Origin: a virus | Virus record (IMG/VR): IMGVR_UViG_3300024581_002882 | Length of the DNA: 64,000 nucleotides | Strand: one strand, 5' to 3' | Shown: piece by piece, positions 3,578 through 53,861 of the stretch | Numbering within the stretch: the stretch's first letter is position 1 | Layout of the letters: each line of letters begins with the position of its first letter | The notes under the pieces: model-generated | What the model saw: only the letters and a program-made list of their open reading frames with translations | Databases searched by the model: none | Told to the model about the DNA's origin: nothing | Translations under genes and position numbers: made by a program

Positions 3578-3635
3578 TTATTTTAGAAAATAATTTATTT
3601 ATTTTAAAAAATAATTTCTTTATTTTAAAAAATAA
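3578..3635. promoter_or_regulatory. three palindromic TTATTTT-N2-AAAATAA sites at 21-bp spacing (candidate operator or iterons)
   Basis: exact copies at 3578, 3599 and 3620, just upstream of the -7 box at 3639. Confidence 0.7.
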
Positions 3636-3638
3636 TTT

Positions 3639-3646
3639 TACATTTG
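3639..3646 (+). promoter_or_regulatory. Bacteroidota-type -7 promoter box for the HTH/replication operon
   Basis: TACATTTG, 25 bp upstream of the HTH gene. Confidence 0.65.
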
Positions 3647-3671
3647 CTTCATTGTAATTAAAAAGAAACTT

Positions 3672-3881
3672 ATGAAAATTACCAAACTACAACGTATTTT
3701 AAGGAGTAGAGGATTGACACAAACAGATTTGTTTCAAATAATAAATGATTCTACGCACAAAAACATTGGACAGGACAGAATTAATAAATTAGTTCTTGGA
3801 AAACAGAAAAATTACACTATTGAAACTGCAAAAACAATTGCAGATGTTCTTGGTGTTAAATTAGATGATTTTGTAGAGTAA
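3672..3881 (+). CDS. XRE/Cro-family helix-turn-helix regulator
   Basis: LQRILRSRGLTQTDL...INKLVLGKQKNYTIETAKTIADVLGVKLDDF. Confidence 0.85.
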   Translation: MKITKLQRILRSRGLTQTDLFQIINDSTHKNIGQDRINKLVLGKQKNYTIETAKTIADVLGVKLDDFVE

Positions 3882-4516
3882 TGGATTTATTGGAATTTAT
3901 AACACAGTTTTCTAATAAGCCAAAAGTTCATGGGGATATTTGGCTATATATTATTTCTCGTGTTAACAATAAAATCCATGTAAGTGAAATATTAAGGCTA
4001 TATAAAGTTTCTAAAGCAAGTTTATATAGGATTTTTAAAGAATATAATACTGAAATAGAATATAAATCTGAATATATAGTTTTTCAAATAAAAAACTCTT
4101 GTGTTTGTTCAAATACAATAACGAAAATAAATAGCCAAACTAAAAAGGTTTCTAATAAAGTAAAAGAAACAAAAGTAGAAGAAGCAAAAGAAGTAGATAT
4201 ATATAAAGAAATAATAGAATATCTTAATATGCAAAGCGGTAAACGTTATTCATATAAAACACAAACAACAAAGCGTTTTATAAATGCTCGTTTAAAAGAG
4301 GGATATATATTTTCAGACTTTAAAAAAGTAATAGATATAAAGTGTTCAAAATGGCTTAATTCTTCAATGGAAGATTATTTAAGACCACAAACATTATTTT
4401 CAAATAAATTTGAGGGTTATGTAAATGAAACTTTAAATGGTAAAAAAGATATAGTAGATAAAGCAAATGACACAATTAGTAAAGCAAAGCAATTCGATTG
4501 GCAATTTGATTCCTAA
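3881..4516 (+). CDS. phage replication initiator-like protein with conserved phage C-terminal domain
   Basis: EIIEYLN..SGKRY...INARLKEGY..SDFKKVID.K...W.....DYLRPQTLFSNKFEGYVNE resembles Phg_2220_C; position after the XRE gene is lambdoid. Confidence 0.75.
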   Translation: MDLLEFITQFSNKPKVHGDIWLYIISRVNNKIHVSEILRLYKVSKASLYRIFKEYNTEIEYKSEYIVFQIKNSCVCSNTITKINSQTKKVSNKVKETKVEEAKEVDIYKEIIEYLNMQSGKRYSYKTQTTKRFINARLKEGYIFSDFKKVIDIKCSKWLNSSMEDYLRPQTLFSNKFEGYVNETLNGKKDIVDKANDTISKAKQFDWQFDS

Positions 4517-5924: not shown

Positions 5925-6580
5925 TGGGAAAAACAGATAAATATAATTTTTTGGTAGGAATACCAACAATAAACAGGGCAGACCTTTTGAATGAAGCCCT
6001 TGAAAAATATTTTATTGATTTTTATAAAAACGATATTTTTATAGTTGACAATGGGAATCAAGATATTTTAACTCGTGAAGAAAGGTTTGAAGTTTACAAG
6101 CCTAAAAAAAACTTAGGGGTTGCTAAAAGTTGGAATCTTATTTTAGATAAAGCTGTTGAATTGGGCTATCCGAGAGTTTTGATATTAAATGATGATGTTT
6201 ATTTAGGCAAACACAGAAAAGACATTGAACAGCTTATAGAAACGTATTATCACGCTGATTTGATACACTCTACTAAGAATTTTTGTTCTTTTATAATGAC
6301 AACATTTGCGTATAAAATGTATGGTGGTTTTGATGAGGGCTTTTTTCCTGCCTATTTTGAGGACAATGACTTTAAATATCGACTTAAAATTAATGGTGGA
6401 TATTCCACCGAAACAGAAGAATTAGACCCTGAAGTTTACAGAAACAGCATGAGCATCAAAAAAGACATAGACTTAAATAATAATTTTGAAAAAAATGAAA
6501 AAAGATATATCGAAAAGTGGGGTGGGTTGCCAAGTGAAGAAATTTTTAAAACGCCTTTCAACAATCAAGATAGGGCATAA
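5924..6580 (+). CDS. glycosyltransferase family 2
   Basis: VGIPTINR, IFIVDNG, NLGVAKSWN, LILNDD, GGFDEGFFPAYFEDND. Confidence 0.9.
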   Translation: MGKTDKYNFLVGIPTINRADLLNEALEKYFIDFYKNDIFIVDNGNQDILTREERFEVYKPKKNLGVAKSWNLILDKAVELGYPRVLILNDDVYLGKHRKDIEQLIETYYHADLIHSTKNFCSFIMTTFAYKMYGGFDEGFFPAYFEDNDFKYRLKINGGYSTETEELDPEVYRNSMSIKKDIDLNNNFEKNEKRYIEKWGGLPSEEIFKTPFNNQDRA

Positions 6581-6721
6581 AGAGATATTTTTAGGATTAA
6601 CTTTCTTTTGCGGAGTGTTAATTTTATGGGTAGATAATGTTTTTGTAGAAATTTTTTGGTTATTTTGTTATTCTGTATGGTTATTAATGTTTTATGACCT
6701 GCAAAAAGAAAAATTTATAGA

Positions 6722-7396
6722 ATGAAAAATTTAGCAAACAAAGTAATTATTTTAGCCCTGTTAGTGGTTGTTTGCTTGTTATTTTTACGTTCTTGTCAGT
6801 TAGAAAAAGATTATAACAGAGTTTCGAGTGCCTTAACGGTTGCTGATTTAAAAAATCAAAAATTTGAAACGGAATTAAACGAAAAAGGTGAGCAATTAGC
6901 TACCCAAAAACAACTTATCCTTTCACAGGAAGAAGCACTTGAAAATAATCTTATACAAATTGAAGAACTTAAAAAGTATAAGCGAATAAAAAGTAAAACA
7001 GAAATAGTTACAAAAACAAAAATTGATACTGTTTATGTGGCTTTTGACCCTGTAAATGAAAACGACAGCACTTATGTGCCTATCCCTGATGGATTTTTTA
7101 GAAATTTCAGTTATACCGAAAAAGATGATTGGTATAAGTTTTCAGGAAGTGTATCAGAAAAAGGGCTAACCATGAATAACATGGAAATTAAAAATAAATA
7201 TAGCCTTTTGATAGCCGATAAAAAATTGGGTTTATTTTCAAAACCCGAACCCCAAGTTATTCTAACTAATTCTAATCCGTACACAAATACAGTTTCGATG
7301 AATAATGTCCAAATCAAATTTGAAAAACCATTTTATAAGAAAGAGTGGTTTTGGTTTGTTTTGGGTGCTACCACAACAACTGTAATTTTAAAATAG
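6722..7396 (+). CDS. membrane or lipoprotein with C-terminal TM (possible unimolecular spanin)
   Basis: N-terminal hydrophobic helix ending FLRSC, coiled coil, beta region, C-terminal KPFYKKEWFWFVLGATTTTVILK. Confidence 0.45.
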   Translation: MKNLANKVIILALLVVVCLLFLRSCQLEKDYNRVSSALTVADLKNQKFETELNEKGEQLATQKQLILSQEEALENNLIQIEELKKYKRIKSKTEIVTKTKIDTVYVAFDPVNENDSTYVPIPDGFFRNFSYTEKDDWYKFSGSVSEKGLTMNNMEIKNKYSLLIADKKLGLFSKPEPQVILTNSNPYTNTVSMNNVQIKFEKPFYKKEWFWFVLGATTTTVILK

Positions 7397-7425: not shown

Positions 7426-8667
7426 ATGGATAGGTTAAATTTAAAAGGCAAAATTTCTTTAGCCATAGCTATTTTAATTATGCTATCATTTTTCATTGTT
7501 AAAACGCTACTTCTTTTTGGTTTTTTAGAATATTCAGAGTTTACAAATTGGTATGAATATCTGTCGGTTATATTTTTTATGCCACCATTTTTTATTGTTA
7601 TTTCACAATTTTTATATAGGTTAAAAAAAAGAGAAGAACTTATTGATTCACAGTTAAGGGCTGTAAATCAATCAAACCTTGTCGTTAATTTAACTATGGA
7701 TGGTCGTGTAATTAGTGCCAATAAAAACTTTTGTGATTTAGTTGGCTATGAAGAAAAAGAAATTTTAAATAAGCCTCATAAAAAATTAGTAACTCCTGAA
7801 TATCAAAACAGTAAGGAATATAAAATATTTTGGAAAAAATTAAATGATGGGGAAACTATAACAGAAAAATTTGAAAGAGTTTCTAAAAATGGAAAAAGTG
7901 TTTGGTTGTATGGAAATTACACTCCTATAAAAAATTCTAAGGGTGTATTTTACAAAGTTTTAAAAATAGCAAACGATGTAACAGAACAGCATATTGCAGG
8001 AGAATTAGTAAACCAAAAAAACACTTTTTTAGAACATTCTGCAAAGATTTTAAGACATGATATGCATAGCGGTATTAACACTTATATACCAAGAGGAATA
8101 AAATCTTTAAAAAGAAGGCTTACCGAACAGCAAATCAAAGATTTAAAAATAGAAGCACCATTAAAATTAATTGCTGATGGACTGCATCACACTCAAAAAG
8201 TTTATGAGGGCGTAAAAGAATTTACCAATCTTGTTCGGGAAGATGCTGTATTGAATTTAGAAGAACACAATTTAAAAGAAATTCTTTGTGAATATTTTGA
8301 CCTAACATCTTATAAGGAAAGCATTATTATTGATGATTTGCCAACAATAAGCGTAAATAAACCGCTTTTTTGTACTGCAATTGATAATCTTGTTAGAAAT
8401 GGTTTGCGTTATAACGATAGTAAAACTAAATTTGTTAAAATTTTTATGTTAAAAAATAATATTTTAGCAGTTCAAGATAATGGTAGAGGAATGAGCCAAA
8501 GAGATTTTTTGAGACTTTCAAAACCATATACAAGAAAAGAAGGACAAAAAGAAACAGGCACAGGGCTTGGTATAAACATTTGTAACGCTATTTTAGAGCA
8601 ACATGGTTTTACCATAAAATCAGAAAAAAAAGAATTAGGAACAATTTTAAAAATTAAAATAGCGTGA
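7426..8667 (+). CDS. membrane PAS/PAC sensor histidine kinase
   Basis: 2 TM; PAS-PAC (FWKKLNDG..FERVSKNGKSVWLYGNYTPI...KIANDVTE); H-box ILRHDMHSG; N-box IDNLVRNGLRYN; G1 VQDNGRGM; G2 GTGLGINIC; start placed at ATG 7426. Confidence 0.93.
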   Translation: MDRLNLKGKISLAIAILIMLSFFIVKTLLLFGFLEYSEFTNWYEYLSVIFFMPPFFIVISQFLYRLKKREELIDSQLRAVNQSNLVVNLTMDGRVISANKNFCDLVGYEEKEILNKPHKKLVTPEYQNSKEYKIFWKKLNDGETITEKFERVSKNGKSVWLYGNYTPIKNSKGVFYKVLKIANDVTEQHIAGELVNQKNTFLEHSAKILRHDMHSGINTYIPRGIKSLKRRLTEQQIKDLKIEAPLKLIADGLHHTQKVYEGVKEFTNLVREDAVLNLEEHNLKEILCEYFDLTSYKESIIIDDLPTISVNKPLFCTAIDNLVRNGLRYNDSKTKFVKIFMLKNNILAVQDNGRGMSQRDFLRLSKPYTRKEGQKETGTGLGINICNAILEQHGFTIKSEKKELGTILKIKIA

Positions 8668-9095
8668 TAAAAAGTATTTTATTAGTTGATGATGAAAGTT
8701 TATTTCATTTAGTATTTGAAGATGCGTGTTCACTTTTGGACATTGCACTAAACCTTGAATCTATTGATAGTTCGGATAAAGCCGAAGAAATGTTTAAAAT
8801 ATGGCAAAAACACCCTGAAAAAAAGCCTGAATGTGTTTTTGTGGACTTAAACATAATAGGAAGTAGCTTTGATGGTATCGAACTTATTAGAAAAATTAAC
8901 TTTGATTATGGCGATGGGGTTGTTATAGGCATTATATCCTCATCAAGCGATAAATCTGAACAAGCAAAAGCGATTCAATCGGGTTCGCAGTTTTGGATTG
9001 TGAAAAGTGATGATATTGAACCTCGTCTTGAAGAATTTAAAAAAGATTACGAGGGCTACAAGAACAAAACAGCACCGTTTAAAGTATATGAATAA
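8664..9095 (+). CDS. single-domain response regulator (CheY-like receiver)
   Basis: ILLVDD acidic pocket, VFVDLNI phospho-Asp, IISSS, WIVK conserved Lys; no output domain. Confidence 0.93.
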   Translation: MIKSILLVDDESLFHLVFEDACSLLDIALNLESIDSSDKAEEMFKIWQKHPEKKPECVFVDLNIIGSSFDGIELIRKINFDYGDGVVIGIISSSSDKSEQAKAIQSGSQFWIVKSDDIEPRLEEFKKDYEGYKNKTAPFKVYE

Positions 9096-9646
9096 TGATT
9101 AAAATATCTCAAGAAACTAAAGACACACTTAAAAACCTTGCTCAAGAAAACAATATATATCTTGAGGGAAATATCATTAAATTCATAGAAGTAGGTGATG
9201 ACGAGGAATTTCTTGCATATCTAAACGAAGCAACAAAACAAGACAAAGAAAACAGGAAAAAGAGGCTTCTTGTAACAAAACAAGTTCAACAACAAAACAA
9301 AGAACTTGTAAAACAAAAGGAAGAAAAAGAAGGTTTGTTAGACGAATTAGAACAAGCCCTTAAAAAAGCTGAAGTTTCAAAGGAAATTGCAGAGCAAGAT
9401 TTAACGCTTTTACAAAAGAAAACCCAAACAGAATTAGTAGGGAATATTGTAAAGGTTTCTCTTGTTTTAATTTGCGGTATAGCCCTTATGATAACCATTC
9501 TTTACTCTCTTGCACTTGTTTTTAATAAAGACACAGAGTTGCTTGGAAATACCTTTTCAAATATGTTAGGTATATTGCTTACTAACTCTTTTAGCATAAT
9601 TGGAACTATTATGGGTGTTAAGTATGCAACAAAAGACACAAACTAA
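9095..9646 (+). CDS. coiled-coil protein with two C-terminal TM helices
   Basis: Q/E/K-rich heptads then hydrophobic segments; TAATG-coupled to the response regulator. Confidence 0.7.
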   Translation: MIKISQETKDTLKNLAQENNIYLEGNIIKFIEVGDDEEFLAYLNEATKQDKENRKKRLLVTKQVQQQNKELVKQKEEKEGLLDELEQALKKAEVSKEIAEQDLTLLQKKTQTELVGNIVKVSLVLICGIALMITILYSLALVFNKDTELLGNTFSNMLGILLTNSFSIIGTIMGVKYATKDTN

Positions 9647-30423: not shown

Positions 30424-30588
30424 ATGGCTAATAAAAAACATGAGTATATATCAGATATAACTTCTATGGATTTTATATTCTTAAGAACTATAACAAAATC
30501 AGATGATTGCATAACTTTTAATGCAATTACATTAGATAATCAGGAGTTTTACGGAGAAGAAACTTCTATAAAATATGAAACAAAATGA
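30424..30588 (+). CDS. 54-aa hypothetical protein
   Basis: read by eye; ATGA overlap with the ATPase start. Confidence 0.45.
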   Translation: MANKKHEYISDITSMDFIFLRTITKSDDCITFNAITLDNQEFYGEETSIKYETK

Positions 30589-31397
30589 GAGAACCAAAAT
30601 TAGGAGTAGCAGTAGGTAAAAAGGGTGTTGGAAAAACATACACAACTAATCAGGTTATTGATAGTTACGTTAAGGGAAATCCCCAAAAAGGTGTTAAACC
30701 AAGAAGGGCTTTAATTCTTGATGTGAACGATGAATTTGAGCATATTAAAGCGTTAAGCCTTAAAGACGTAATGAAGTTTTCAGTACACCCAACTATTGAG
30801 GCGAGAAGAATAAGACCTTTTATGGAAGATGGTCAAAGAATGACAATAAGGGAAATTCAAGAAACACTTTTTGCTATTCTTAAAGATTACAGGGGTGGGC
30901 TTTTATTAATTGAGGACATAAATAGATATATTTCTGACCAATTACCAAACGATGTTGTAGGTGCAATATGCACAAACAGACACGCTGATACAGACATAAT
31001 TCTTCACTTTCAATCTATTGGTAGGGTAACAACTAAAATTTGGCAAAACTTAAATTGGTTGCGTTTTCACAAAAACACAGATAGTGTTGATAGACATAAA
31101 CATAAGTTTGAAGATAAGTTTGAATATCTTAAAATTGCTGAAATTTTAGTAAACCATAAATACTATAATGGAGATGAAAGATATTACCTATATGTAGATA
31201 TAGATAGTGAAAAGATTATGGGAAATGTAAGCAAAAAAGATTTAGACTTTGCTATTGAAGAATACATTTCAAAATACTACAAAAAAATCGTAACACCCTT
31301 GCTTAACCAAATGGGTATGGATGGAAAGAAAAAATATACACCCGAAAAGGCGATAAAAGAGATAAAAAGTAAGATTTATAAGAATTTTACACGATAA
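30585..31397 (+). CDS. FtsK/HerA-superfamily (A32/P9-like) genome-packaging ATPase
   Basis: VAVGKKGVGKT (Walker A), ALILDVNDEF, LLLIED (Walker B), TNRHADTDIILHFQS (RH...Q motif); about 270 aa; adjacent to the capsid candidate. Confidence 0.75.
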   Translation: MREPKLGVAVGKKGVGKTYTTNQVIDSYVKGNPQKGVKPRRALILDVNDEFEHIKALSLKDVMKFSVHPTIEARRIRPFMEDGQRMTIREIQETLFAILKDYRGGLLLIEDINRYISDQLPNDVVGAICTNRHADTDIILHFQSIGRVTTKIWQNLNWLRFHKNTDSVDRHKHKFEDKFEYLKIAEILVNHKYYNGDERYYLYVDIDSEKIMGNVSKKDLDFAIEEYISKYYKKIVTPLLNQMGMDGKKKYTPEKAIKEIKSKIYKNFTR

Positions 31398-31710: not shown

Positions 31711-32400
31711 ATGTCAAATGTACGCAGATATTTAGCAAACGCACAGAGAATGGCTAACGAATCTTTCTCTAATGCCGATGGTTTCATTGATGATGATTTG
31801 TCTTTCACAGGCGATGACTTTTTCAATGCTCAAGGTGGAGGGGCTTCAGCACCTACATCACAGCCATACATCGTAACAGTAACATCTACTTCAGGTAGTG
31901 CTGTTTCAGATTTCGAAGTACTCGGTTCTTACGAGTACATTAACAACGCAGGGTTCACAGCAGGTGGCGACCTTGTAATCGGTTCTATCACTATTTCAAG
32001 TGGTATTGCAGGTATTACATATCGTGAAATGTTGTATCAGTTTATGAACAACCCTTATAGCGTAGGACTTACTTATGTACAGTCAGCTACAGCTAACCAA
32101 ATTTTGGAGACAATTTCAGTTAACACGAGAGATGCTAACGGTAACGAGGCTCAAAAAACACTTGTGCCAACAATCGACCCGTATCAGCAACAATCTACAG
32201 TATTGGCTATGAAATATGCTTACCGAATTGATGGTTTCACAAAACTTATCATTCGTCAAGTATTAGCCAACGCTACTGTTAAATTGTACTTCTACCCATC
32301 TGACAACATTAATCTTGCTCGTGGACTTGCAGGACAAAATGTTTCTCGTCAGTACGGAAATCCCGGCATTGTAAAAGCACAAACCATCAAATTATCATAA
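31711..32400 (+). CDS. candidate major capsid protein (single vertical jelly-roll type) with acidic N-terminal propeptide
   Basis: next to the packaging ATPase; own promoter and terminator; visibly enriched TTC/TAC/AAC/ATC codons; alternating beta-strand pattern; paralogue at 52937. Confidence 0.6.
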   Translation: MSNVRRYLANAQRMANESFSNADGFIDDDLSFTGDDFFNAQGGGASAPTSQPYIVTVTSTSGSAVSDFEVLGSYEYINNAGFTAGGDLVIGSITISSGIAGITYREMLYQFMNNPYSVGLTYVQSATANQILETISVNTRDANGNEAQKTLVPTIDPYQQQSTVLAMKYAYRIDGFTKLIIRQVLANATVKLYFYPSDNINLARGLAGQNVSRQYGNPGIVKAQTIKLS

Positions 32401-32438
32401 TTAGAGGTTAGTGTTTAACAGAGTTGGATAACTTAACT

Positions 32439-32474
32439 AAAGGGGCGTTTGGTTTTTCCAAATTCCCCTTTTTT
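32439..32474 (+). terminator. intrinsic terminator after the capsid gene
   Basis: AAGGGG-CG-TTTGG/loop/CCAAA-TT-CCCCTT then T tract. Confidence 0.75.
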
Positions 32475-32490
32475 ACTTAAAAATTAACAC

Positions 32491-32874
32491 ATGGATGTAT
32501 ATAACTACATAGCAAATACAAACCCCCACAAGGCTCAAGATATTATAAACAGCTTTGGGTATAAGGTTGTAGATAAAAAGAACATGGGTGGTAACTTAAA
32601 ATCACTTGTTGCTAAAGAAGGCGAACCTGCCCTTAAAATGGTTTTAGAAAATCATCCTGACAAAGAAGTTATTTTAGAACTATATAGCCCAACAGCAGAT
32701 GGCAAACACTATTCTTGTGGCTGTAATGAATGTAATGAAAAAAGAATGGTAGAAAAATTCTTAAACGCAAGTGGAAAAGAAAGTTCAGAAGCTAAAAAAG
32801 TGGACAGCAACTTTTCTTTAGTTTTTCTTGCAGGGGTTTTAGTTTTATCATTTGCAATATTATCAAAAAATTAA
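32491..32874 (+). CDS. C-terminally anchored membrane protein (NAxG family)
   Basis: helical N-domain, FLNASG, TM, KN tail. Confidence 0.7.
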   Translation: MDVYNYIANTNPHKAQDIINSFGYKVVDKKNMGGNLKSLVAKEGEPALKMVLENHPDKEVILELYSPTADGKHYSCGCNECNEKRMVEKFLNASGKESSEAKKVDSNFSLVFLAGVLVLSFAILSKN

Positions 32875-32879
32875 AAACA

Positions 32880-33479
32880 ATGGCTCGATTTGACGATTTA
32901 GGAAAAGCAATTGGAATGGCTGTTTCAAAAGATGAGCAAGGAATAAGAGCCTTGTTACAAAGAAATGGTGTTTCAACTACAAACATTAAAACAAAACAAC
33001 AACTTTCAGACGTATTTGTTGAATCTCTTGTGCGTTCAAAAGGATTAGGACAAGATTTCGCTAACTATATTAAATCAAAGGACAACGCTAATATGAGTGG
33101 TTCTATGAAATATGTTGGTGGCGAAGCAAACCTAATTGGAGATTATGTACCTGAAGCATATAACATGACAGGTTCACAATACATGAACGCTGAAGGAGAT
33201 GAAGAAGCAGATGCAAAAACAAAAAAAGGTGGCTTCTTTTCAGGTCTTAATCTTGCAGACCTAATTAATACAGCAACTACAATTTATCTTGCGGAACAAC
33301 AAGGTAGGGTTTCTGAAAACGAAACAGAACAAATAAAAATTGCTTCTAATACGCAATTAAATAACGATTTTAACCCAACACCACCAAAAAAATCAAACAC
33401 AGGTACTATTGTGGTATTTAGTGTTTTAGGTTTAGCTGTTGTGGGTGCTGTCGTATTTTTTGCACTTAAAAAGAAATAA
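32880..33479 (+). CDS. C-terminally anchored membrane protein (NAxG family)
   Basis: GKAIG..D..GIRALL..NGV N-domain; YMNAEG; GGFFSGLNLADLIN; TM plus KKK. Confidence 0.75.
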   Translation: MARFDDLGKAIGMAVSKDEQGIRALLQRNGVSTTNIKTKQQLSDVFVESLVRSKGLGQDFANYIKSKDNANMSGSMKYVGGEANLIGDYVPEAYNMTGSQYMNAEGDEEADAKTKKGGFFSGLNLADLINTATTIYLAEQQGRVSENETEQIKIASNTQLNNDFNPTPPKKSNTGTIVVFSVLGLAVVGAVVFFALKKK

Positions 33480-33480
33480 A

Positions 33481-34125
33481 ATGGCAAATCAACAACAACT
33501 ACAAAACTTAGGTAATGCAATAGGATATATTGCTGTTGCAGACATTAATGGACTTCGCAATTTGCTTTCAAAATATGGCGTTGTAAATGTAGGTAGTGAT
33601 TCTAAAACTCTTATTACTGAAACAACAAACTTAGTGTCGAACTCACGTTTCTACAATGAATTTGTTGCTTTAGTTCAAAAAAACTTAGGCGAAGCTTCAT
33701 TTTCAGGTTATAATAATATTGGTGGAGACTATGGCTCTTGGCAACCTTCAAGTGATAGCCTTTTAAATTCAAATACTTTAAACCAAAAACTAACCGATGT
33801 TAAATCACCCTCAAATAGTGGTGGCGGATTTTTTAGTGGAATAAATTTAGGTTCATTAATAAATACGGGGGCATCAATTTATGGAAGTGTAACTGCGGAT
33901 AAAAGACAAAAAGACCTATTAAACGCACAAGCAAATCAACAAGCACAGCAAACACAAAGTCAAATATTGGCAGGACAATTAGCTTTAGAACAAGAAAAGC
34001 TTAAACTTGCTCAAATACAAGCACAAAACGAAAAAGGGGGTTCTAATACACTTCTTTATGTTGGTTTAGGTCTTGTAGGACTTCTTGTTGTTGGTGGTGT
34101 TATTTATGCAGTTACTAAAAAATAA
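33481..34125 (+). CDS. C-terminally anchored membrane protein (NAxG family)
   Basis: GNAIG..D..GLRNLL..YGV N-domain; YNNIGG; GGFFSGINLGSLIN; coiled coil; TM plus KK; start reassigned to 33481. Confidence 0.75.
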   Translation: MANQQQLQNLGNAIGYIAVADINGLRNLLSKYGVVNVGSDSKTLITETTNLVSNSRFYNEFVALVQKNLGEASFSGYNNIGGDYGSWQPSSDSLLNSNTLNQKLTDVKSPSNSGGGFFSGINLGSLINTGASIYGSVTADKRQKDLLNAQANQQAQQTQSQILAGQLALEQEKLKLAQIQAQNEKGGSNTLLYVGLGLVGLLVVGGVIYAVTKK

Positions 34126-34131
34126 TAAATT

Positions 34132-34365
34132 ATGAGTGTAAAAAGCCCAAAAGAAATAGTTGCCGAAGTGTCAGGACTTACTGATGACAAAAAAAGGAAA
34201 GCGTTTATGCTGAAAGCACAGTCAAGCGTTCATGGTGCTTTTTGGGGTGGTGCTTTTGGTCTTTTATTTGCATTTTATAAAAGTAAAAACAAATATGTTA
34301 GCACTCTAATAGGTGCAGGTGTTGGTGCTTTAGTATCTAATATTTTAACAGTAGAAAAAAAATAA
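34132..34365 (+). CDS. 2-TM glycine-zipper membrane protein
   Basis: GAFWGGAFGLL; LIGAGVGAL. Confidence 0.7.
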   Translation: MSVKSPKEIVAEVSGLTDDKKRKAFMLKAQSSVHGAFWGGAFGLLFAFYKSKNKYVSTLIGAGVGALVSNILTVEKK

Positions 34366-34370
34366 AAGCT

Positions 34371-34775
34371 ATGAATTATAATAATTTTGCAGAACCACCT
34401 CAATATATTTTTTTTAAACCAAATAAAGGTAGCCTTTTAGATAGTGCTACATTAGACCAAAGGCTTAAAGAAATAAAATCAGGTTCAGGTGGTTTTAATA
34501 GCCCTGTTGGTGTTACACCCGATAAATATAAAGGATTAAATAATAATAGTACAGCATCTGATAACAGTCAAAAACAACCTGTAGATGCAGATGTTTTGGG
34601 TTCTTATGCAAAACAAGGTGCATGGGTTGGAAACGCATTAGGAGATGTTATAGCTTTAGCTTATGCTTTTAAAACAAAGTCAGGCTTTTGGAAGGGCTTT
34701 GGATATGTCCTTTTAGGTGGATTAACAGGTGGGGCTTTAGGCTTCGGTGTTGGTTCTCTAATAAAGAAAAAATAA
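34371..34775 (+). CDS. 2-TM glycine-zipper membrane protein
   Basis: starts MNYNNF; LLGGLTGGALGFGVG. Confidence 0.7.
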   Translation: MNYNNFAEPPQYIFFKPNKGSLLDSATLDQRLKEIKSGSGGFNSPVGVTPDKYKGLNNNSTASDNSQKQPVDADVLGSYAKQGAWVGNALGDVIALAYAFKTKSGFWKGFGYVLLGGLTGGALGFGVGSLIKKK

Positions 34776-34780
34776 CAGTT

Positions 34781-35044
34781 ATGAATTATAATAATTTTGT
34801 ACCAAAAGAGAATCGTTTCGGTATTAATATACCCTTTGATATGATGCCCGATAAAGGTTACAATCCTGTTCAACCTAAAAAGGAATTGATGGATGAAATG
34901 GAAGAAAAAGCTAAACGCAATGCAGAAGAAACTATAAAATTTTTTAAAGCAAAAAAAGATAAAGAAAAAAATAAAAAAATTATTTTATACGTTGCTATTG
35001 CAGTAACAGGTTTTTTTGCTTATAAAAAACTCTTTAAAAAATAA
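34781..35044 (+). CDS. C-terminally anchored membrane protein
   Basis: starts MNYNNF (start reassigned to 34781); TM plus KKLFKK. Confidence 0.7.
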   Translation: MNYNNFVPKENRFGINIPFDMMPDKGYNPVQPKKELMDEMEEKAKRNAEETIKFFKAKKDKEKNKKIILYVAIAVTGFFAYKKLFKK

Positions 35045-35080
35045 AACTAAGTTCAATTAAATTAATATAAATTATAAATT

Positions 35081-35209
35081 ATGAAAACTATGAAAATGGA
35101 TGTTAAGTCTTTAGTAGGTGTAGCTGTATCAATTGCAGTTCTTTACGCAACAGTTTATTACGCAGGTCGTGGGTGGAAGCGTTCACAGTCAGGCGAAAAA
35201 CTTGTATAA
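35081..35209 (+). CDS. 42-aa membrane protein
   Basis: MKTMKMDVKSLVGVAVSIAVLYATVYYAGRGWKRSQSGEKLV; read by eye. Confidence 0.6.
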   Translation: MKTMKMDVKSLVGVAVSIAVLYATVYYAGRGWKRSQSGEKLV

Positions 35210-35212
35210 TAA

Positions 35213-35314
35213 ATGAATACGAAAACTTTAACAGGAATAGTATTACTTGTTGTTGGTGTTGGCGGTCTTTCTTACTTATACAATTTGTACTTTAAGGAGA
35301 CCGACACACAATAA
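35213..35314 (+). CDS. 33-aa membrane protein
   Basis: MNTKTLTGIVLLVVGVGGLSYLYNLYFKETDTQ; read by eye. Confidence 0.55.
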   Translation: MNTKTLTGIVLLVVGVGGLSYLYNLYFKETDTQ

Positions 35315-35335
35315 CAGCATAAAAATTTATTAAAC

Positions 35336-35599
35336 ATGGAGAAATCAGCTAATCAGCTTTGGAGAGAAAGCGGAACTTCTCTTTCTTTTAAGGATTGGAT
35401 TCAAAGAGAGAAAGATAAAGGAGTACAAATTAAAAATAAACTTCTCGAAGATGTGGTTGGTTCTGTAAAAGAAACTAATCAAAAAGACACAAATACAATA
35501 AAAAGATTTGATTTTGGAGTGCCAAAGTGGGTTATTTACACAGGTGCTTCGGTTTTAACTTTTGCTATTGTATATAAATTATATAAAGCCAAAAAATGA
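35336..35599 (+). CDS. C-terminally anchored membrane protein
   Basis: TM plus YKLYKAKK. Confidence 0.7.
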   Translation: MEKSANQLWRESGTSLSFKDWIQREKDKGVQIKNKLLEDVVGSVKETNQKDTNTIKRFDFGVPKWVIYTGASVLTFAIVYKLYKAKK

Positions 35600-36384
35600 A
35601 CCTAAGAGTAACAACGAGATATGAAGAACTTTCGTTGGCTGTTTACGTTCAAACCCTTACTCCTTGTAAAATAAGAATTAAGGTTTTTGATGCGGAACAA
35701 CCAAAAACTGTTTTTACAGACAGGTATAAAACCGTAAAAGGAAGCGAAGTTTTTTATGTTCGTATGCCTTTAAGTTCAAATCAGGTTATTGTAAGCGTTT
35801 ACAATGAAGCTGTAGGCAACAGACGTAAAGGAGAGGACAGTAGCTTTACCATAACACAGGTAAAGAAATTGCCTTTAGAAAAAAGAACAGATGTGGGGGA
35901 TATTCGTGATTATACGGTTTCCTCTTTTGTGGATTTTGCACAAAGGTTTTCTTTTAACGCATCTTATTTAGATGCTGATAAAACCTATCAGAGTTCAAGT
36001 GGTGAATTTCTTATTGAGTATTTACCATACATAACAAGTTCTAAAACGGGTCAAAAATTAAAAACACCTGCCCGTATTTCTAAGGTAAATGGTAGGATTC
36101 AGGTTTCAAAAGAAGCCTTTGATAACTATACTGTGCCTATGCGTATGGCTATTTTGCTACATGAGTTTTCTCATTTTTATCTAAATGATAATATGGATGA
36201 CGAAGTAGAGGCTGACCTTAATGGGCTTTTAATTTATTTAGGGTTGGGTTATCCTCGAATTGAGGGTTATCAAGCGTTTTTAGAAGTGTTTCAGGACACA
36301 CCTTCGCAACAAAATAAAAACCGTTATGATATAATTAATAAGTTCATAAGGGATTTTGAAAAGAATAAAATGGTAATGAACTAA
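35596..36384 (+). CDS. zincin metalloprotease (HExxH plus downstream E) with N-terminal beta domain
   Basis: AILLHEFSHF...DEVEADLNG, an M48/gluzincin-like arrangement. Confidence 0.8.
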   Translation: MNLRVTTRYEELSLAVYVQTLTPCKIRIKVFDAEQPKTVFTDRYKTVKGSEVFYVRMPLSSNQVIVSVYNEAVGNRRKGEDSSFTITQVKKLPLEKRTDVGDIRDYTVSSFVDFAQRFSFNASYLDADKTYQSSSGEFLIEYLPYITSSKTGQKLKTPARISKVNGRIQVSKEAFDNYTVPMRMAILLHEFSHFYLNDNMDDEVEADLNGLLIYLGLGYPRIEGYQAFLEVFQDTPSQQNKNRYDIINKFIRDFEKNKMVMN

Positions 36385-39268: not shown

Positions 39269-39754
39269 ATGACAAGACAACAAAAAATATTGGTTTATAG
39301 TTTTCTAAGCTTAACGGGGGTTTCTTATTTTGTTTATAGGGGTGTAAGAAGAAGGCAATCTTTTAATGAGTTGATGGCAATAATATCAAAATCAAGTGGT
39401 GGCACATCTTCTAAAACAAAACTTCGTGATGCGTTAGAGGGTAAGTTAGAGGAAAAAATATCTATACAAAACCCTAATAAAAATTATTTCAGACTTTCTG
39501 ATGGGCTTGTTCAAAGCTATTCTTCAGAACTTAATGATGCCATGAGTGGGTGGGGTACTGATGAAGATAAAATAGAATCTGTTTTATCAGGCTTAAAAGA
39601 TAAAGTTCAGGTAAGCCAAATTGCATCATATTACAAATCTGTTTATAACAAGACACTTTATACTCATTTGCTAAGTGAACTTTCAACAACAGATTTTAAT
39701 AATATTGTAGTTCAACAAATAACAAAAATACCCGATGTAAGATGGAAAGCATAA
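39269..39754 (+). CDS. membrane-anchored protein with an annexin repeat
   Basis: LNDAMSGWGTDEDKIESVL...IASYYKSVYNKTLYTHLLSELS. Confidence 0.75.
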   Translation: MTRQQKILVYSFLSLTGVSYFVYRGVRRRQSFNELMAIISKSSGGTSSKTKLRDALEGKLEEKISIQNPNKNYFRLSDGLVQSYSSELNDAMSGWGTDEDKIESVLSGLKDKVQVSQIASYYKSVYNKTLYTHLLSELSTTDFNNIVVQQITKIPDVRWKA

Positions 39755-41290: not shown

Positions 41291-41586
41291 ATAACATTTT
41301 AAATCCACCACAAAATAACGATTGGGCTGAAAACGACAATTTTGCACAAAAAACTGTTGCTAAAGGCGAGGGTATTGTAAAAGAAGTTATTGATGGTGCT
41401 AAAGAAACAGTAAATCTTGCTGTTGAAGAAGTAAAAACTATTGCACCTGATGTTGCTGATGTATTTGAGGAATCTTCAGAACGTCTTAATGCAAAACCAA
41501 GAGTTGTAGATGCTATACCAAACAATTTATTAATTTTTGGTGTTTTAGCTTTAACGGGGTATGTAATAGTTAAGAAAGTTTTATAG
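41278..41586 (+). CDS. C-terminally anchored membrane protein
   Basis: acidic body, TM plus KKVL. Confidence 0.65.
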   Translation: MEEVNNILNPPQNNDWAENDNFAQKTVAKGEGIVKEVIDGAKETVNLAVEEVKTIAPDVADVFEESSERLNAKPRVVDAIPNNLLIFGVLALTGYVIVKKVL

Positions 41587-42149
41587 TGAAAAAACTCTTA
41601 GTGCTTGGTGGTTTAGCTTCAATAGGCTATGCTTTTTATTATTATTTTAAAAAGCAAGTTTCCCTTGTAATGAATTTTGATTACAGGATAAAAGATGCTA
41701 AAATTCTAAATCTAACAAAAGATGGTGCTAAATTAGATGTGGCTGTTCAGGTTACAAATAAATCATCTTTAGGCGTTGATATATTAGGATATGACTTAAC
41801 ATTCAAGTACAAGGGCGTTGAACTTGGTAAAACACAAAGCAATCAATCATTTAGGGTAAATCCTGATAGTAGTTTTATTGTACAAGCTTTGGGTGATGTA
41901 AGTTTTAAAAACGCAAAAACTGTTTTACTTCCATTTGTAAAAGATATAATTAACAGGAAACCAATACAAATAGAGCTTCAAGGGTTTTTAAATGTTGAGT
42001 TTTCAGGATTAAGCCGAAAGGTTGAGTTCAATAATGAGCAAATAACTTATTCAAAGGATTTGTTAGTAGATGTAGGTCTTGATGATGAATTTGAAAAAGG
42101 TAAAACAAAAATAGGCGATATTTTAGGTAAAATTGGAATAAAAATTTAA
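41586..42149 (+). CDS. LEA_2/WHy-domain protein with N-terminal TM
   Basis: LDVAVQVTNKSSLGVDILGYDLTFKYKGVELGK...VNPDSSFIV. Confidence 0.75.
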   Translation: MKKLLVLGGLASIGYAFYYYFKKQVSLVMNFDYRIKDAKILNLTKDGAKLDVAVQVTNKSSLGVDILGYDLTFKYKGVELGKTQSNQSFRVNPDSSFIVQALGDVSFKNAKTVLLPFVKDIINRKPIQIELQGFLNVEFSGLSRKVEFNNEQITYSKDLLVDVGLDDEFEKGKTKIGDILGKIGIKI

Positions 42150-50100: not shown

Positions 50101-50460
50101 ATGACAAGCACATGGACAGTTTTGGGTATTAAATCACACACAAGTAACGGTGGTGTTTTTTATGCTGATTTACAATATTCTATAACAGATTTAGAATTAA
50201 TGATATTTGCATCAAAAAACGTTTCTGTAGAATTTACCTATGACGACACAGATGAAAATTTTATCCCGTTTAACGAACTTACAGAAGAAAATATTGTAAC
50301 TTGGGCTAAAGAAATAATTGACTATCAAACAATAGAATCAGATGTTTTAGAAGATTACAACAATCAGGTAAGTGAAGCTGAACAAACAAACGAGGTGTCA
50401 GATAGTTTTCCCGAAAACTTTAGACCTTTGCCACCACCTTTTGACACTTCGGGAATATAA
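50101..50460 (+). CDS. fibre-associated hypothetical protein
   Basis: FIPFNELTEENIVTWAK; directly after the fibre. Confidence 0.55.
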   Translation: MTSTWTVLGIKSHTSNGGVFYADLQYSITDLELMIFASKNVSVEFTYDDTDENFIPFNELTEENIVTWAKEIIDYQTIESDVLEDYNNQVSEAEQTNEVSDSFPENFRPLPPPFDTSGI

Positions 50461-51398: not shown

Positions 51399-51707
51399 AT
51401 GTCAAAAAAGAATCAAGAAACACCAAAAATTACAAAAGAAGAACTTGAAGGGCTTAGAAAAATTGTTAATTCAAACAATGAAATCAACAGCAAAAGGGCT
51501 TCAATTTGTTTACAAAAAGAAGTTGCTATTCGTCAATTAGAAAAAGAATTTGACGAGACTTGGGAAATGTTAGATTTGCAATCTAATAAAGGTCAAGAGG
51601 AACAAAAAAATTACTTAGCTGATTTAGACACAAAATATGGTCAAGGTAAAAGCTATGACCTTTCCACAGGGGAAATAAAAGATGTGGAAAAAAATGAACA
51701 GAATTGA
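51399..51707 (+). CDS. coiled-coil hypothetical protein
   Basis: heptads, tail KYG..YDLSTGEI. Confidence 0.6.
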   Translation: MSKKNQETPKITKEELEGLRKIVNSNNEINSKRASICLQKEVAIRQLEKEFDETWEMLDLQSNKGQEEQKNYLADLDTKYGQGKSYDLSTGEIKDVEKNEQN

Positions 51708-52230
51708 CCCAACGGATAAAATAATACAATCCGCTATTTATGAGAACCCTGACGTAGTTGTTAAAATTCTCAAGGATAGCGGTTATCGTGTTTCTAACAA
51801 TCCTACTCTACAAGAGATTACCTCTAAAACTTTTACAGCCTTATACGAAAAAAAAGATGAGGCTTTTGCGAATAGGCTTGATAGCTTAATTACGACAGGG
51901 GAATACAATAATGCAATAGGTATTGCTATAGGGATTGCATCAAGTATTTTTTCGGGAATCATGGGTTCTCGACAGGCAAGAAAGCAAAGGCAATTACAAA
52001 TGCGTATTGCTGTTGCAAACCTTGAAAACGAAAAGTTACTTGCTGAAGAAGAACTTAGGGTTTATGGAGAAACGGAGAGAACTAAAATATTAGCAAACTC
52101 TTTGCTTTCTTATAGAACAGCTTTACAGGGAGAAAGCACAGCAAGACAAAAAAACGTATATCTTTATCTTATTGCAATAGGATTAGGTATATCTATAATT
52201 TACGGTACTAACTTATTACTTTCTGAATAA
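51694..52230 (+). CDS. C-terminally anchored membrane protein (NAxG family)
   Basis: N-domain like 32491; YNNAIG; GIAIGIASSIFSGIMG; coiled coil; TM; start reassigned to 51694. Confidence 0.7.
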   Translation: MNRIDPTDKIIQSAIYENPDVVVKILKDSGYRVSNNPTLQEITSKTFTALYEKKDEAFANRLDSLITTGEYNNAIGIAIGIASSIFSGIMGSRQARKQRQLQMRIAVANLENEKLLAEEELRVYGETERTKILANSLLSYRTALQGESTARQKNVYLYLIAIGLGISIIYGTNLLLSE

Positions 52231-52583
52231 TGGCAACACCAAGCACACCAAAAGGGGGAATTTCAGGCGGAGATATTGCGGGTCAATTAATAAGCACATT
52301 TATTGGTATTGGTTTTGCTAAGGACAATGCCAAGCAACAACGTAAATTACAAGAGAAAATTGCAAAAATGTCTTTGGAAAATCAAAGGCAAATTCAAGAA
52401 CGTTTGGCACAGGCTCAAACAGATATAGAAAGGCAACGAATAGCTTTTCAAATTTTAGCACTTGAAAAAAACGAACAGTTAGTTGAACGTTTAGAGAAAG
52501 ACAAATATAAATCAATGGTTATTGTTGGGGTAGGTGCAGTTGCACTTGCTGTTGTAATTGTTTTAGCAAAAAGAAAAAAATAA
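52230..52583 (+). CDS. amphipathic helix plus coiled coil plus C-terminal TM protein
   Basis: GGDIAGQLISTFIGIG; Q-rich heptads; TM plus KRKK. Confidence 0.7.
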   Translation: MATPSTPKGGISGGDIAGQLISTFIGIGFAKDNAKQQRKLQEKIAKMSLENQRQIQERLAQAQTDIERQRIAFQILALEKNEQLVERLEKDKYKSMVIVGVGAVALAVVIVLAKRKK

Positions 52584-52936: not shown

Positions 52937-53461
52937 ATGGCTACACATTCCCCTACATCAACATCTTATCCAAATGGAGTTGTAACAATTGAAAGCGAAG
53001 ATGCTACTACTTACAATTCCATACAGGAATCTGTTGTAGGTTCTCACAACTACAAGATAAATAAAGTTTACCTTAAAACAAACGATGTTTCACAGATTTT
53101 AGAGCCTATAACATTTAGAAAATTCGATTCAAATGGTAACGTACAAGAGGACAAAACAGTTCCTACCGTTGACCCATTTAGCTTTCAGCCATCAATAGAT
53201 ATAGATTTTAAAGGAAAAGAAAATATTTTAGATGGAAGAACCGAAATAATATATAACGTAAAGGCGAATGAAAATGTATATTTTTACCTTGACACAACAG
53301 TTATAGACAATGGTTCTTTATTAGGAGAACAAAAAGGATTTGATAAAGATTTTTTAGAAACATACGACTTTTTTCAAGAGTATGATGACCAAATAGTAAT
53401 TGATTTTAATTATGACCAAGACAGAGTACCTCAATGCACAGACGAAACACCGAGTGATTGA
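52937..53461 (+). CDS. paralogue of the capsid candidate (minor capsid or penton-like)
   Basis: QILEPITFRKFDSNGNVQEDKTVPTVDPFSFQ vs QILETISVNTRDANGNEAQKTLVPTIDPYQQQ; LDGRTEII.NVKAN vs IDGFTKLII.QVLAN. Confidence 0.75.
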   Translation: MATHSPTSTSYPNGVVTIESEDATTYNSIQESVVGSHNYKINKVYLKTNDVSQILEPITFRKFDSNGNVQEDKTVPTVDPFSFQPSIDIDFKGKENILDGRTEIIYNVKANENVYFYLDTTVIDNGSLLGEQKGFDKDFLETYDFFQEYDDQIVIDFNYDQDRVPQCTDETPSD

Positions 53462-53861
53462 TGGTCTTAAAACGGGTGATTTAATTAAATTCAAAGCTGA
53501 CACATTTTTACCTTTTTTATACCATTATGGTATAATTAGTATTGAAAATGGCAAAAAATATATTTATCATTTACAAACTGATAAGGAAAACAAACATGGC
53601 GGAAATTTAGTTAGAGATAACTTTTTAGATTACGCAAAAGGCAGAGAAATACTTGAAGTTCAAAACCTTAAATTGAATAGGGAAGAATTTCAAGAAGTTT
53701 TAGAGAGTATTAAAAAAGAAAAGTATAATGTGTTCACAAATAATTGTGAGCATTTTGTACATTATTTAAAAGACAAAAAAGCTATTTCCCCACAGTTAAA
53801 AGCTTGGGGCTTGGCTGTTTCATTAGGTATTATAACATACCTTTTTATAAATAAAAAATGA
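53412..53861 (+). CDS. LRAT/NC-type permuted papain-like enzyme with C-terminal TM
   Basis: LKTGDLI..HYGI..YIYHL...YNVFTNNCEHFV; TM plus KK. Confidence 0.85.
   Translation: MTKTEYLNAQTKHRVIDGLKTGDLIKFKADTFLPFLYHYGIISIENGKKYIYHLQTDKENKHGGNLVRDNFLDYAKGREILEVQNLKLNREEFQEVLESIKKEKYNVFTNNCEHFVHYLKDKKAISPQLKAWGLAVSLGIITYLFINKK

Follow-up and report, generated by a model that had tools for sequence, protein, structure and literature searches.

A short motif of the form aromatic-x-N-A-x-G recurs in the putative major capsid protein and in several small membrane proteins encoded by a 64,000-nucleotide stretch of viral DNA (IMG/VR record IMGVR_UViG_3300024581_002882, hereafter the window), including those encoded between positions 31,711 and 34,125. 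Our analysis of the window and of related loci suggests that virion proteins carry the motif in their disordered linkers as a short linear signal for recognition, and that a virus-encoded zincin, the product of open reading frame (ORF) 35596, may dock on the motif and cut there at maturation. We put the probability of this reading at roughly 0.45, slightly below even odds; recognition by the zincin, the cutting, and the position of the cut are steps that we infer.

Occurrence and conservation of the motif

The copies of the motif in the window are as follows:

31765-31782, + strand: FSNADG, residues 19-24 of ORF 31711 (context ES-FSNADG-F, directly after the N-terminal helix)
31819-31836, + strand: FFNAQG, residues 37-42 of ORF 31711 (context DD-FFNAQG-G, about nine residues ahead of the TSQPYI strand)
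32758-32775, + strand: FLNASG, residues 90-95 of ORF 32491
33159-33173, + strand: YNMTG, a five-residue variant in ORF 32880
33180-33197, + strand: YMNAEG, residues 101-106 of ORF 32880
33709-33726, + strand: YNNIGG, residues 77-82 of ORF 33481
51904-51921, + strand: YNNAIG, residues 75-80 of ORF 51682

The six full copies of [FY]-x-N-[AIM]-x-G lie where the original prediction, made from the letters of the window, had placed them. Its YNMTG is present only as the shorter variant, the MNYNNF starts of ORFs 34371 and 34781 hold half a motif that lacks the Gly, and YNNAIG, although present, belongs to an ORF that begins at 51682, the position given for it (51694) being an internal Met of the same frame.

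Within the proteins of the window (~20,400 residues), the pattern [FY].N[AIM].G matched seven times compared to 1.08 ± 1.05 times in shuffles, and six of the seven matches sit in five virion-module proteins. The same exact pattern matched 186 times in 66 other loci (62 related loci from IMG/VR and four others, the window excluded) compared to 14.9 ± 3.8 times in shuffles, and six families carried it in at least 30% of their members where 0.11 families would be expected. The test on the other loci weighs more, because the pattern was defined after seeing the window. The original prediction was to be given up if the motif were missing from homologues; this count and the positions of the motif among orthologues show instead that it is clearly conserved. 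Codons differ among the copies in the window, indicating that the repeat is at the protein level, and a repeat of the DNA itself was thereby ruled out. The only strict match in the window outside the virion module, FSNMLG (nucleotides 9554-9571), is encoded by an ORF at 9095-9646 (+ strand) whose product is a membrane coiled-coil partner of a phage two-component system; this match may be due to chance.

The motif could be refined to [E/D]-x-[F/Y]-x-[N>G]-[A>V,F,M]-x-G, with the acidic residue two positions ahead of the aromatic in 111 of 199 distinct contexts, an extension such as would be expected of an enzyme subsite pattern. Clustering of all genes of the loci placed the motif in at least ten unrelated families. 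These include the capsid protein, the 32880/33481 proteins, the 32491 proteins, part of the 35336 family (where it has been gained and lost among members and is absent from the window's own copy), and several families with an N-terminal transmembrane segment (TM), in which it follows the anchor by 10-30 residues. A TM was predicted in 79% of the non-capsid carriers. The presence of one ordered signal in at least ten unrelated families suggests that it has one trans-acting reader. In practical terms, the motif is a marker for virion proteins that have no other annotation in these genomes.

The proteins of the window that bear on the motif are:

31711-32400, + strand: putative major capsid protein, 229 residues (AlphaFold2 model, distant structural matches to capsid proteins)
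32491-32874, + strand: tail-anchored membrane protein, 127 residues, with an N-domain that holds a Cys cluster, FLNASG, a spacer, and a C-terminal TM
32880-33479, + strand: membrane protein, 199 residues, with an N-domain, a linker holding YNMTG and YMNAEG, the Gly-rich hydrophobic segment GGFFSGLNLADLIN, a C-terminal TM, and KKK
33481-34125, + strand: membrane protein, 214 residues, with an N-domain, YNNIGG, GGFFSGINLGSLIN, a Q/A-rich coiled-coil-like stretch, a C-terminal TM, and KK
34371-34775, + strand: membrane protein starting MNYNNF, a degenerate N-terminal copy of the motif
34781-35044, + strand: small tail-anchored protein starting MNYNNF (half motif, no Gly)
51682-52230, + strand: membrane protein, 182 residues, with an N-domain, YNNAIG merging into a Gly-rich hydrophobic segment, a coiled coil, and a C-terminal TM
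52230-52583, + strand: 51682-type protein that lacks the N-domain (BLASTP 7e-6)

The product of ORF 31711 can reasonably be taken as a capsid protein on the basis of its predicted structure. The AlphaFold2 model (predicted local distance difference test, pLDDT, of 81) comprises a helix (residues 2-17), a disordered acidic arm (residues 18-43, pLDDT < 50), and a jelly-roll (residues 50-215). The N-terminal helix is amphipathic (hydrophobic moment 0.56, p ~0.013). Structural alignment with VIA-align gave Z scores of 5-6 against the vertex protein of PR772 and the capsid proteins of FLiP, phiCjT23, PBCV-1, and PM2, a range that also included lectins, carbohydrate-binding modules, and other beta-sandwiches. 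Foldseek searches with the model returned nothing below 1e-3 in the PDB and generic beta-sandwiches only in BFVD; a PDB sequence search with the capsid profile returned nothing below E 0.3, and Pfam and PHROGs gave nothing useful for the capsid and membrane proteins.

Clustering at 90% identity divides the ORF 31711 family into 1660 clusters, most of which come from contigs (up to ~100 kb) of marine metagenomes; at 50% identity there are 562 representatives. Among 24 close homologues, F19, A22, and G24 of the first copy and F37 and F38 of the second are invariant, and A40 and G42 of the second are conserved in at least 90%. The consensus FxxxDG of the first copy is retained in 90 divergent homologues, and A40 is conserved in at least 90% of the divergent alignment also. 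Among 119 divergent representatives, which span down to ~25-30% identity, 80 carry the core motif in the N-terminal arm (15.8 in shuffles), often in two or three copies. The last copy ends a median of nine residues before the conserved TSQPYI strand, or 6-11 residues before the jelly roll. Homologues that lack the motif have a basic N-terminus and are either extra paralogues in the same kind of virus (locus L067) or encoded on contigs of <2 kb. The window also encodes a capsid paralogue that has neither arm nor motif:

52937-53461, + strand: capsid paralogue, 174 residues, without N-terminal arm and without motif (BLASTP 38% over 82 residues, E 2.8e-7)

Locus L067 (NCBI GCA_040384165.1), a distant relative, holds extra jelly-roll paralogues at 8092-9367 (+ strand) and also at 3622-4098 and 6242-6760. 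These have a basic N-terminal helix, a C-terminal TM, and a Lys tail, consistent with membrane-anchored capsid-like proteins, and they adjoin a conserved trio of ATPase, capsid, and 32491 homologue.

The 44 distinct orthologues of the 32491 family align such that the motif falls at one place, flanked by a conserved N-domain and the C-terminal TM. Position 1 is Y in 24 and F in 20 of these; 37 have N and seven have G at position 3; position 4 is A in 34, V in six, F in three, and M in one; and at position 6, 42 have G and two have A. Position 5 is S, T, D, or N (S or T in 28 of the 44), and a Glu usually stands two residues upstream of the motif. Nearly all orthologues also have a conserved Cys cluster, C-x-C-x2-3-C (e.g., CGCNEC, residues 74-81 of ORF 32491), 8-15 residues upstream of the motif, which may be a metal site or a disulphide knot.

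The proteins encoded by ORFs 32880 and 33481 are paralogues (BLASTP 9e-13), and their orthologues carry one to five copies of the motif in the same linker, sometimes as regular arrays (loci L020:8231-8950, L027:8226-8948, and L032:8176-9228). The array in L020 reads YFKMSG-NAQ-YFRMSG-NAQ-YFKMSG-KG-YMNSTG. The orthologue in L032 (+ strand, 350 residues) has a linker grown to about five repeats of ~45 residues, each with one copy of the motif (GFSNADGNF, RFSNTSGNF) and an MDTQSGGF box.

The original prediction described one N-domain common to these membrane proteins, followed after the motif by a Gly-rich amphipathic helix. The N-domain of ORF 51682 is indeed homologous to that of 32880/33481 (hhalign 91%, E 1e-6), but ORF 32491 shares with the others only a stretch of its first ~26 residues, and weakly so (hhalign 50%, E 1.6e-4 against the 51682 N-domain; E 0.023 against 32880/33481). 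The Gly-rich segments, which lie 10-35 residues from the motif, are not amphipathic, as their hydrophobic moments (0.14-0.17) are the same as those of shuffles; they are moderately hydrophobic instead. The suggestion that ORF 52230 encodes the 51682 protein minus its N-domain was borne out by alignment to the C-terminal part of the latter (hhalign 97.8%, E 1.3e-12). An orthologue of ORF 52230 (L063:6247-6618) starts MSDCKGYLNADG. The motif is poorly conserved in the 51682 family, and two 51682 orthologues start at the position of the motif with no N-domain, which shows that the downstream part can work alone.

At least five families also have a copy of the motif no more than 15 residues from the start codon, in some cases in proteins that have no N-domain; short paralogues of this kind start MQDLYNNYSGF or MESYNNLTGSEY. 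Orthologues of ORF 34371 start MHHSDYMEDFNNAMG; residues 8-15 of those at L002:10358-10774 and L045:10277-10702 read EDFNNAMG, with the motif in full. This indicates that the MNYNNF of the window is a decayed copy. ORF 34781 had only five homologous matches, in three loci. A sorting signal of the sortase, exosortase, or rhombosortase type was considered and rejected: the spacer between motif and TM varies from ~12 to >100 residues, copies follow N-terminal TMs, and copies are found in the capsid protein, which has no TM. Many unrelated small proteins share a second, C-terminal signal consisting of [S/G]-[N/T]-T, a Gly-rich TM helix, and two or three Lys (e.g., KSNTGTIVV...ALKKK and GSNTLLYVGLG...AVTKK), which is found at 32880-35599 and 52230-52583 in the window and in many loci.

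A zincin as candidate reader of the motif

The most likely reader of the motif would be the following protein:

35596-36384, + strand: soluble zincin with an N-terminal beta-sandwich (residues 1-96) and an M48/minigluzincin-like catalytic domain (residues 109-258) that contains HEFSH

Its model (pLDDT 90) aligned best with BepA (6sar; Z 8.5, root-mean-square deviation 4.3 Å over 122 residues), a Z score barely above the band that VIA-align calls common, followed by 3c37 (Z 7.0), Ste24 (Z 6.5), and abylysin (Z 6.0). H189, E190, H193, E203, and D207, which make up an HExxH and a downstream acidic ligand, are invariant in 25 homologues. Searches returned no Pfam match at E up to 0.001, no PHROG match, and no PDB sequence match below E 0.88. 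The predicted fold and the invariant residues make ORF 35596 credible as a protease of the M48-like zincin type. The gene is present in 47 loci, inside the block of membrane-protein genes, and its unnamed family (2168 clusters) is about as widespread as the capsid gene (1660).

Complex prediction with the zincin and residues 1-60 of the capsid protein gave a score of 0.59, compared to 0.02 for the best control. The mark for this score was passed by 58 of 80 solved complexes and two of 110 mismatched pairs; at 0.60 or below, it was passed by only seven of those 80 complexes and by both of the passing mismatches. Runs agreed in at least 51% of contacts, with a partner pLDDT of at least 46. This result weakly suggests that the zincin contacts the capsid N-terminus.

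Collectively, the placement of the motif suggests the following scheme. In the capsid protein, the signal would lie between the amphipathic N-terminal helix and the jelly roll, and in many small membrane proteins between the membrane anchor and the soluble or Gly-rich part; judging from the distribution of charge, all copies would face into one compartment, which lies between shell and inner membrane. The zincin would dock on the motif there and might cut at or beside it as the particle matures, thereby detaching the capsid N-terminal helix and separating anchors from domains. Two properties generic to maturation signals were found here: one short consensus is common to unrelated virion precursors and conserved in relatives, and a virus-encoded, protease-like zincin is conserved together with the structural genes. 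The scheme is also favoured by the intact catalytic residues of the zincin, the place of its gene within the membrane-protein block, the subsite-like acidic extension of the motif, the natural variants that lack an N-domain, and the weak complex signal.

Several observations weigh against cutting by the zincin. No cleavage product has been observed, and megablast of the window DNA and tblastn of the putative capsid gene against 50,697 deposited phage records both returned zero matches, such that no cultured relative or virion proteome can be used. Cutting at the copies close to start codons would remove few residues. Tandem arrays of three to five copies, and the gain and loss of the motif in the 35336 family, are more typical of docking motifs. 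Scores in the band of this complex prediction are wrong more often than they are right, and the prediction came with no interface. Finally, the zincin could have another job, such as in entry, and the window has a second peptidase-like gene at 53400-53861.

The original prediction proposed a maturation cleavage signal that trims the capsid propeptide and unmasks membrane-active helices. A cleavage signal remains partly supported in that the motif is conserved and a plausible enzyme is encoded nearby. Unmasking as a general logic was not sustained, because copies occur near starts that have no N-domain, after N-terminal TM anchors, and in tandem arrays, because the motif was gained and lost within one family, and because it stands well apart from a Gly-rich segment that is not amphipathic.

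Alternative explanations and known maturation systems

The motif may instead serve for docking and never be cut. As a multivalent tether, or "virion address", it would bind to a structural partner and so bring the capsid arm and the membrane proteins into the particle during assembly. We consider this quite possible, with less credence than we give to cutting. The partner might be an assembly factor, the underside of the capsid lattice, or the zincin-like protein through its beta-sandwich domain. Docking fits well with the copies at the very N-terminus of proteins, where nothing upstream is left to remove, and the tandem arrays (the L020 array and the approximately five repeats in L032) would suit avidity. 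Gain and loss in indel-prone linkers, and the predicted location of the motif on the capsid-facing side of proteins anchored at either their N- or C-terminus, are likewise consistent with docking, and the weak complex signal (0.59 versus 0.02) fits binding alone equally well. However, no receptor was identified, and the only partner tested is an enzyme with invariant catalytic residues, which makes binding that is not followed by cutting less economical. Moreover, the model of the capsid monomer does not show its own arm docked on it. Docking and cutting by the zincin can be combined, with docking first and cutting afterwards.

It is improbable that the motif is a structural or compositional feature that has no trans-acting reader, such as a helix cap or turn (aromatic...Asn...Gly) in low-complexity, N/G/A/D-rich linkers of an AT-rich genome. 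The first capsid copy does directly follow the predicted helix at residues 2-17, and A, N, D, and G abound in the linkers, but shuffles that retain the composition of each protein yield 6- to 12-fold fewer matches, and such a feature would leave unexplained both the tandem arrays outside helices and the ordered conservation across ten or more unrelated families.

Autoproteolysis at Asn is known from nodaviruses and tetraviruses, where the bond cut is N|A or N|F; in Flock House virus, cleavage at N363|A364 yields the lytic gamma peptide. The Asn-Ala core found in most copies of the motif, including those in the arm of the capsid protein, resembles these sites, and a membrane-active product is a feature of those viruses. 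We nevertheless regard self-cleavage at N-A with release of membrane-active peptides as very unlikely here. The Asn is not invariant, as Gly replaces it in seven of the 44 orthologues of ORF 32491 and Arg, Lys, or Ser does so in array copies such as YFRASG, YFKMSG, and YASG. The sites lie in disordered linkers rather than in a folded catalytic environment, and many of the proteins with the motif are not capsid proteins. An N-glycosylation sequon (N-x-S/T) is a negligible prospect even though many copies read N-A-S, N-A-T, or N-M-T, since S or T fills position 5 in just 28 of the 44 sequences of the 32491 family, since the capsid protein and other families have D, Q, E, N, V, or G there, and since the conserved aromatic and Gly lie outside any sequon.

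Adenovirus, poxviruses, and African swine fever virus (ASFV) are known to use maturation signals that several of their proteins have in common. Adenain of adenovirus cuts at (M/I/L)-x-G-G|x and (M/I/L)-x-G-x|G in pVI, pVII, pVIII, pIIIa, and other proteins, and cleavage of pVI frees a membrane-lytic helix. The likeness to the present motif lies in one short signal that starts with a hydrophobic residue, ends with Gly, and is found in many unrelated virion proteins of a jelly-roll virus. In contrast, the motif studied here reads aromatic-x-N-A-x-G, the candidate enzyme is a zincin rather than a C5 cysteine protease, cutting is a conjecture, and the host is bacterial. All 44 orthologues of the 32491 family have F or Y at position 1, N or G at position 3, and A, V, F, or M at position 4, which departs from the adenain consensus in both register and residues. 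No C5/Ulp1-like cysteine protease was found among the part of the ORFs scanned with Pfam; a papain-like LRAT/PPPDE protein is encoded at 53400-53861.

In poxviruses, I7 cuts A-G|x, and in ASFV, pS273R cuts G-G|x; both are cysteine proteases with signals of two or three residues, and poxviruses also carry the metalloprotease G1, of the M16-like zincin family. These systems are similar in that a large, membrane-containing virus matures by a short, Gly-containing signal. They differ from the present system in that the signal here has six residues, the zincin candidate belongs to another family than G1, and there is no sequence relation.

Enzymes of the M48 family act on membrane or envelope proteins. 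ORF 35596 is like M48 proteins and minigluzincins (BepA, HtpX, Ste24, and abylysin) in the fold of its catalytic domain and in its HExxH with a downstream acidic ligand, and unlike them in that it has no Pfam or PDB sequence match, is soluble, has an extra N-terminal beta-sandwich, and is virus-encoded and lineage-specific. Class I viral fusion proteins are primed by cleavage beside a Gly-rich fusion peptide, and the 32880 and 33481 proteins show a similar order of cap domain, linker, Gly-rich hydrophobic segment (GGFFSGLNLADLIN in the former), coiled-coil-like stretch, and TM. Here, in contrast, the motif lies upstream of the Gly-rich segment by 10-35 residues, and the membrane is predicted to be an inner phage membrane, with no envelope.

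The virus lineage and neighbouring genes

The window is gene-dense, with a GC content of 0.28-0.38 and nearly all genes on the + strand up to 56.7 kb. Its genes include those for a peptidoglycan amidase, RecT, fibre proteins that bear Peptidase_S74, and large polyvalent proteins, which identifies it as DNA of a bacterial virus. A literature search for such a lineage yielded only general papers on jelly-roll viruses. With >1600 capsid clusters at 90% identity, the group is highly abundant in ocean metagenomes, and none of its members has been cultured.

We tentatively propose, as a joint claim that we hold to be more doubtful than either reading of the motif as cut or as docking site, that this lineage consists of large (60-130 kb), abundant, uncultured marine phages with a jelly-roll capsid protein and an inner membrane, and that these follow a zincin-based maturation programme in which one linker signal would be both an address at the shell-membrane interface and a later cutting site for the capsid arm and dozens of membrane proteins. 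For membrane-containing jelly-roll phages (PRD1, PM2, and relatives), the prevailing view is that assembly involves no proteolytic maturation. What is new here is a different signal and a zincin candidate in a bacterial, probably membrane-containing jelly-roll lineage that has no cultured members. If the proposal is true, prokaryotic jelly-roll viruses that contain a membrane would gain their first described system of proteolytic maturation, with a mechanism independent of the adenain-type proteases of the eukaryotic counterparts. The shared signal and the nearby zincin offer a testable handle on maturation and on the selection of membrane proteins into the particle.

Two further genes of the window adjoin the capsid gene or its paralogue:

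30585-31397, + strand: P-loop ATPase, upstream of the capsid gene (weak Pfam matches to AAA_22 and Zot; phrog_2666, 4.5e-7)
53400-53861, + strand: LRAT/PPPDE protein, 153 residues (Pfam LRAT 9.4e-7; PPPDE/Peptidase_C97 2.4e-6)

A PDB sequence search with the ATPase returned nothing below E 0.3; the gene order ATPase, capsid, 32491 homologue is retained in the distant locus L067. The LRAT/PPPDE protein is a permuted-papain enzyme encoded between the capsid paralogue and spike genes, and is perhaps a second candidate peptidase or else a lipid acyltransferase. Two small proteins of the structural block, encoded at 39269-39754 and 41586-42149 (both + strand), gave matches to an Annexin repeat (2.1e-7) and LEA_2 (2.2e-8), membrane-associated folds that are unusual in phages. 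A match to DUF7936 (5.3e-10) was found at 50101-50460 (+ strand), directly after two fibre genes with Peptidase_S74 domains.

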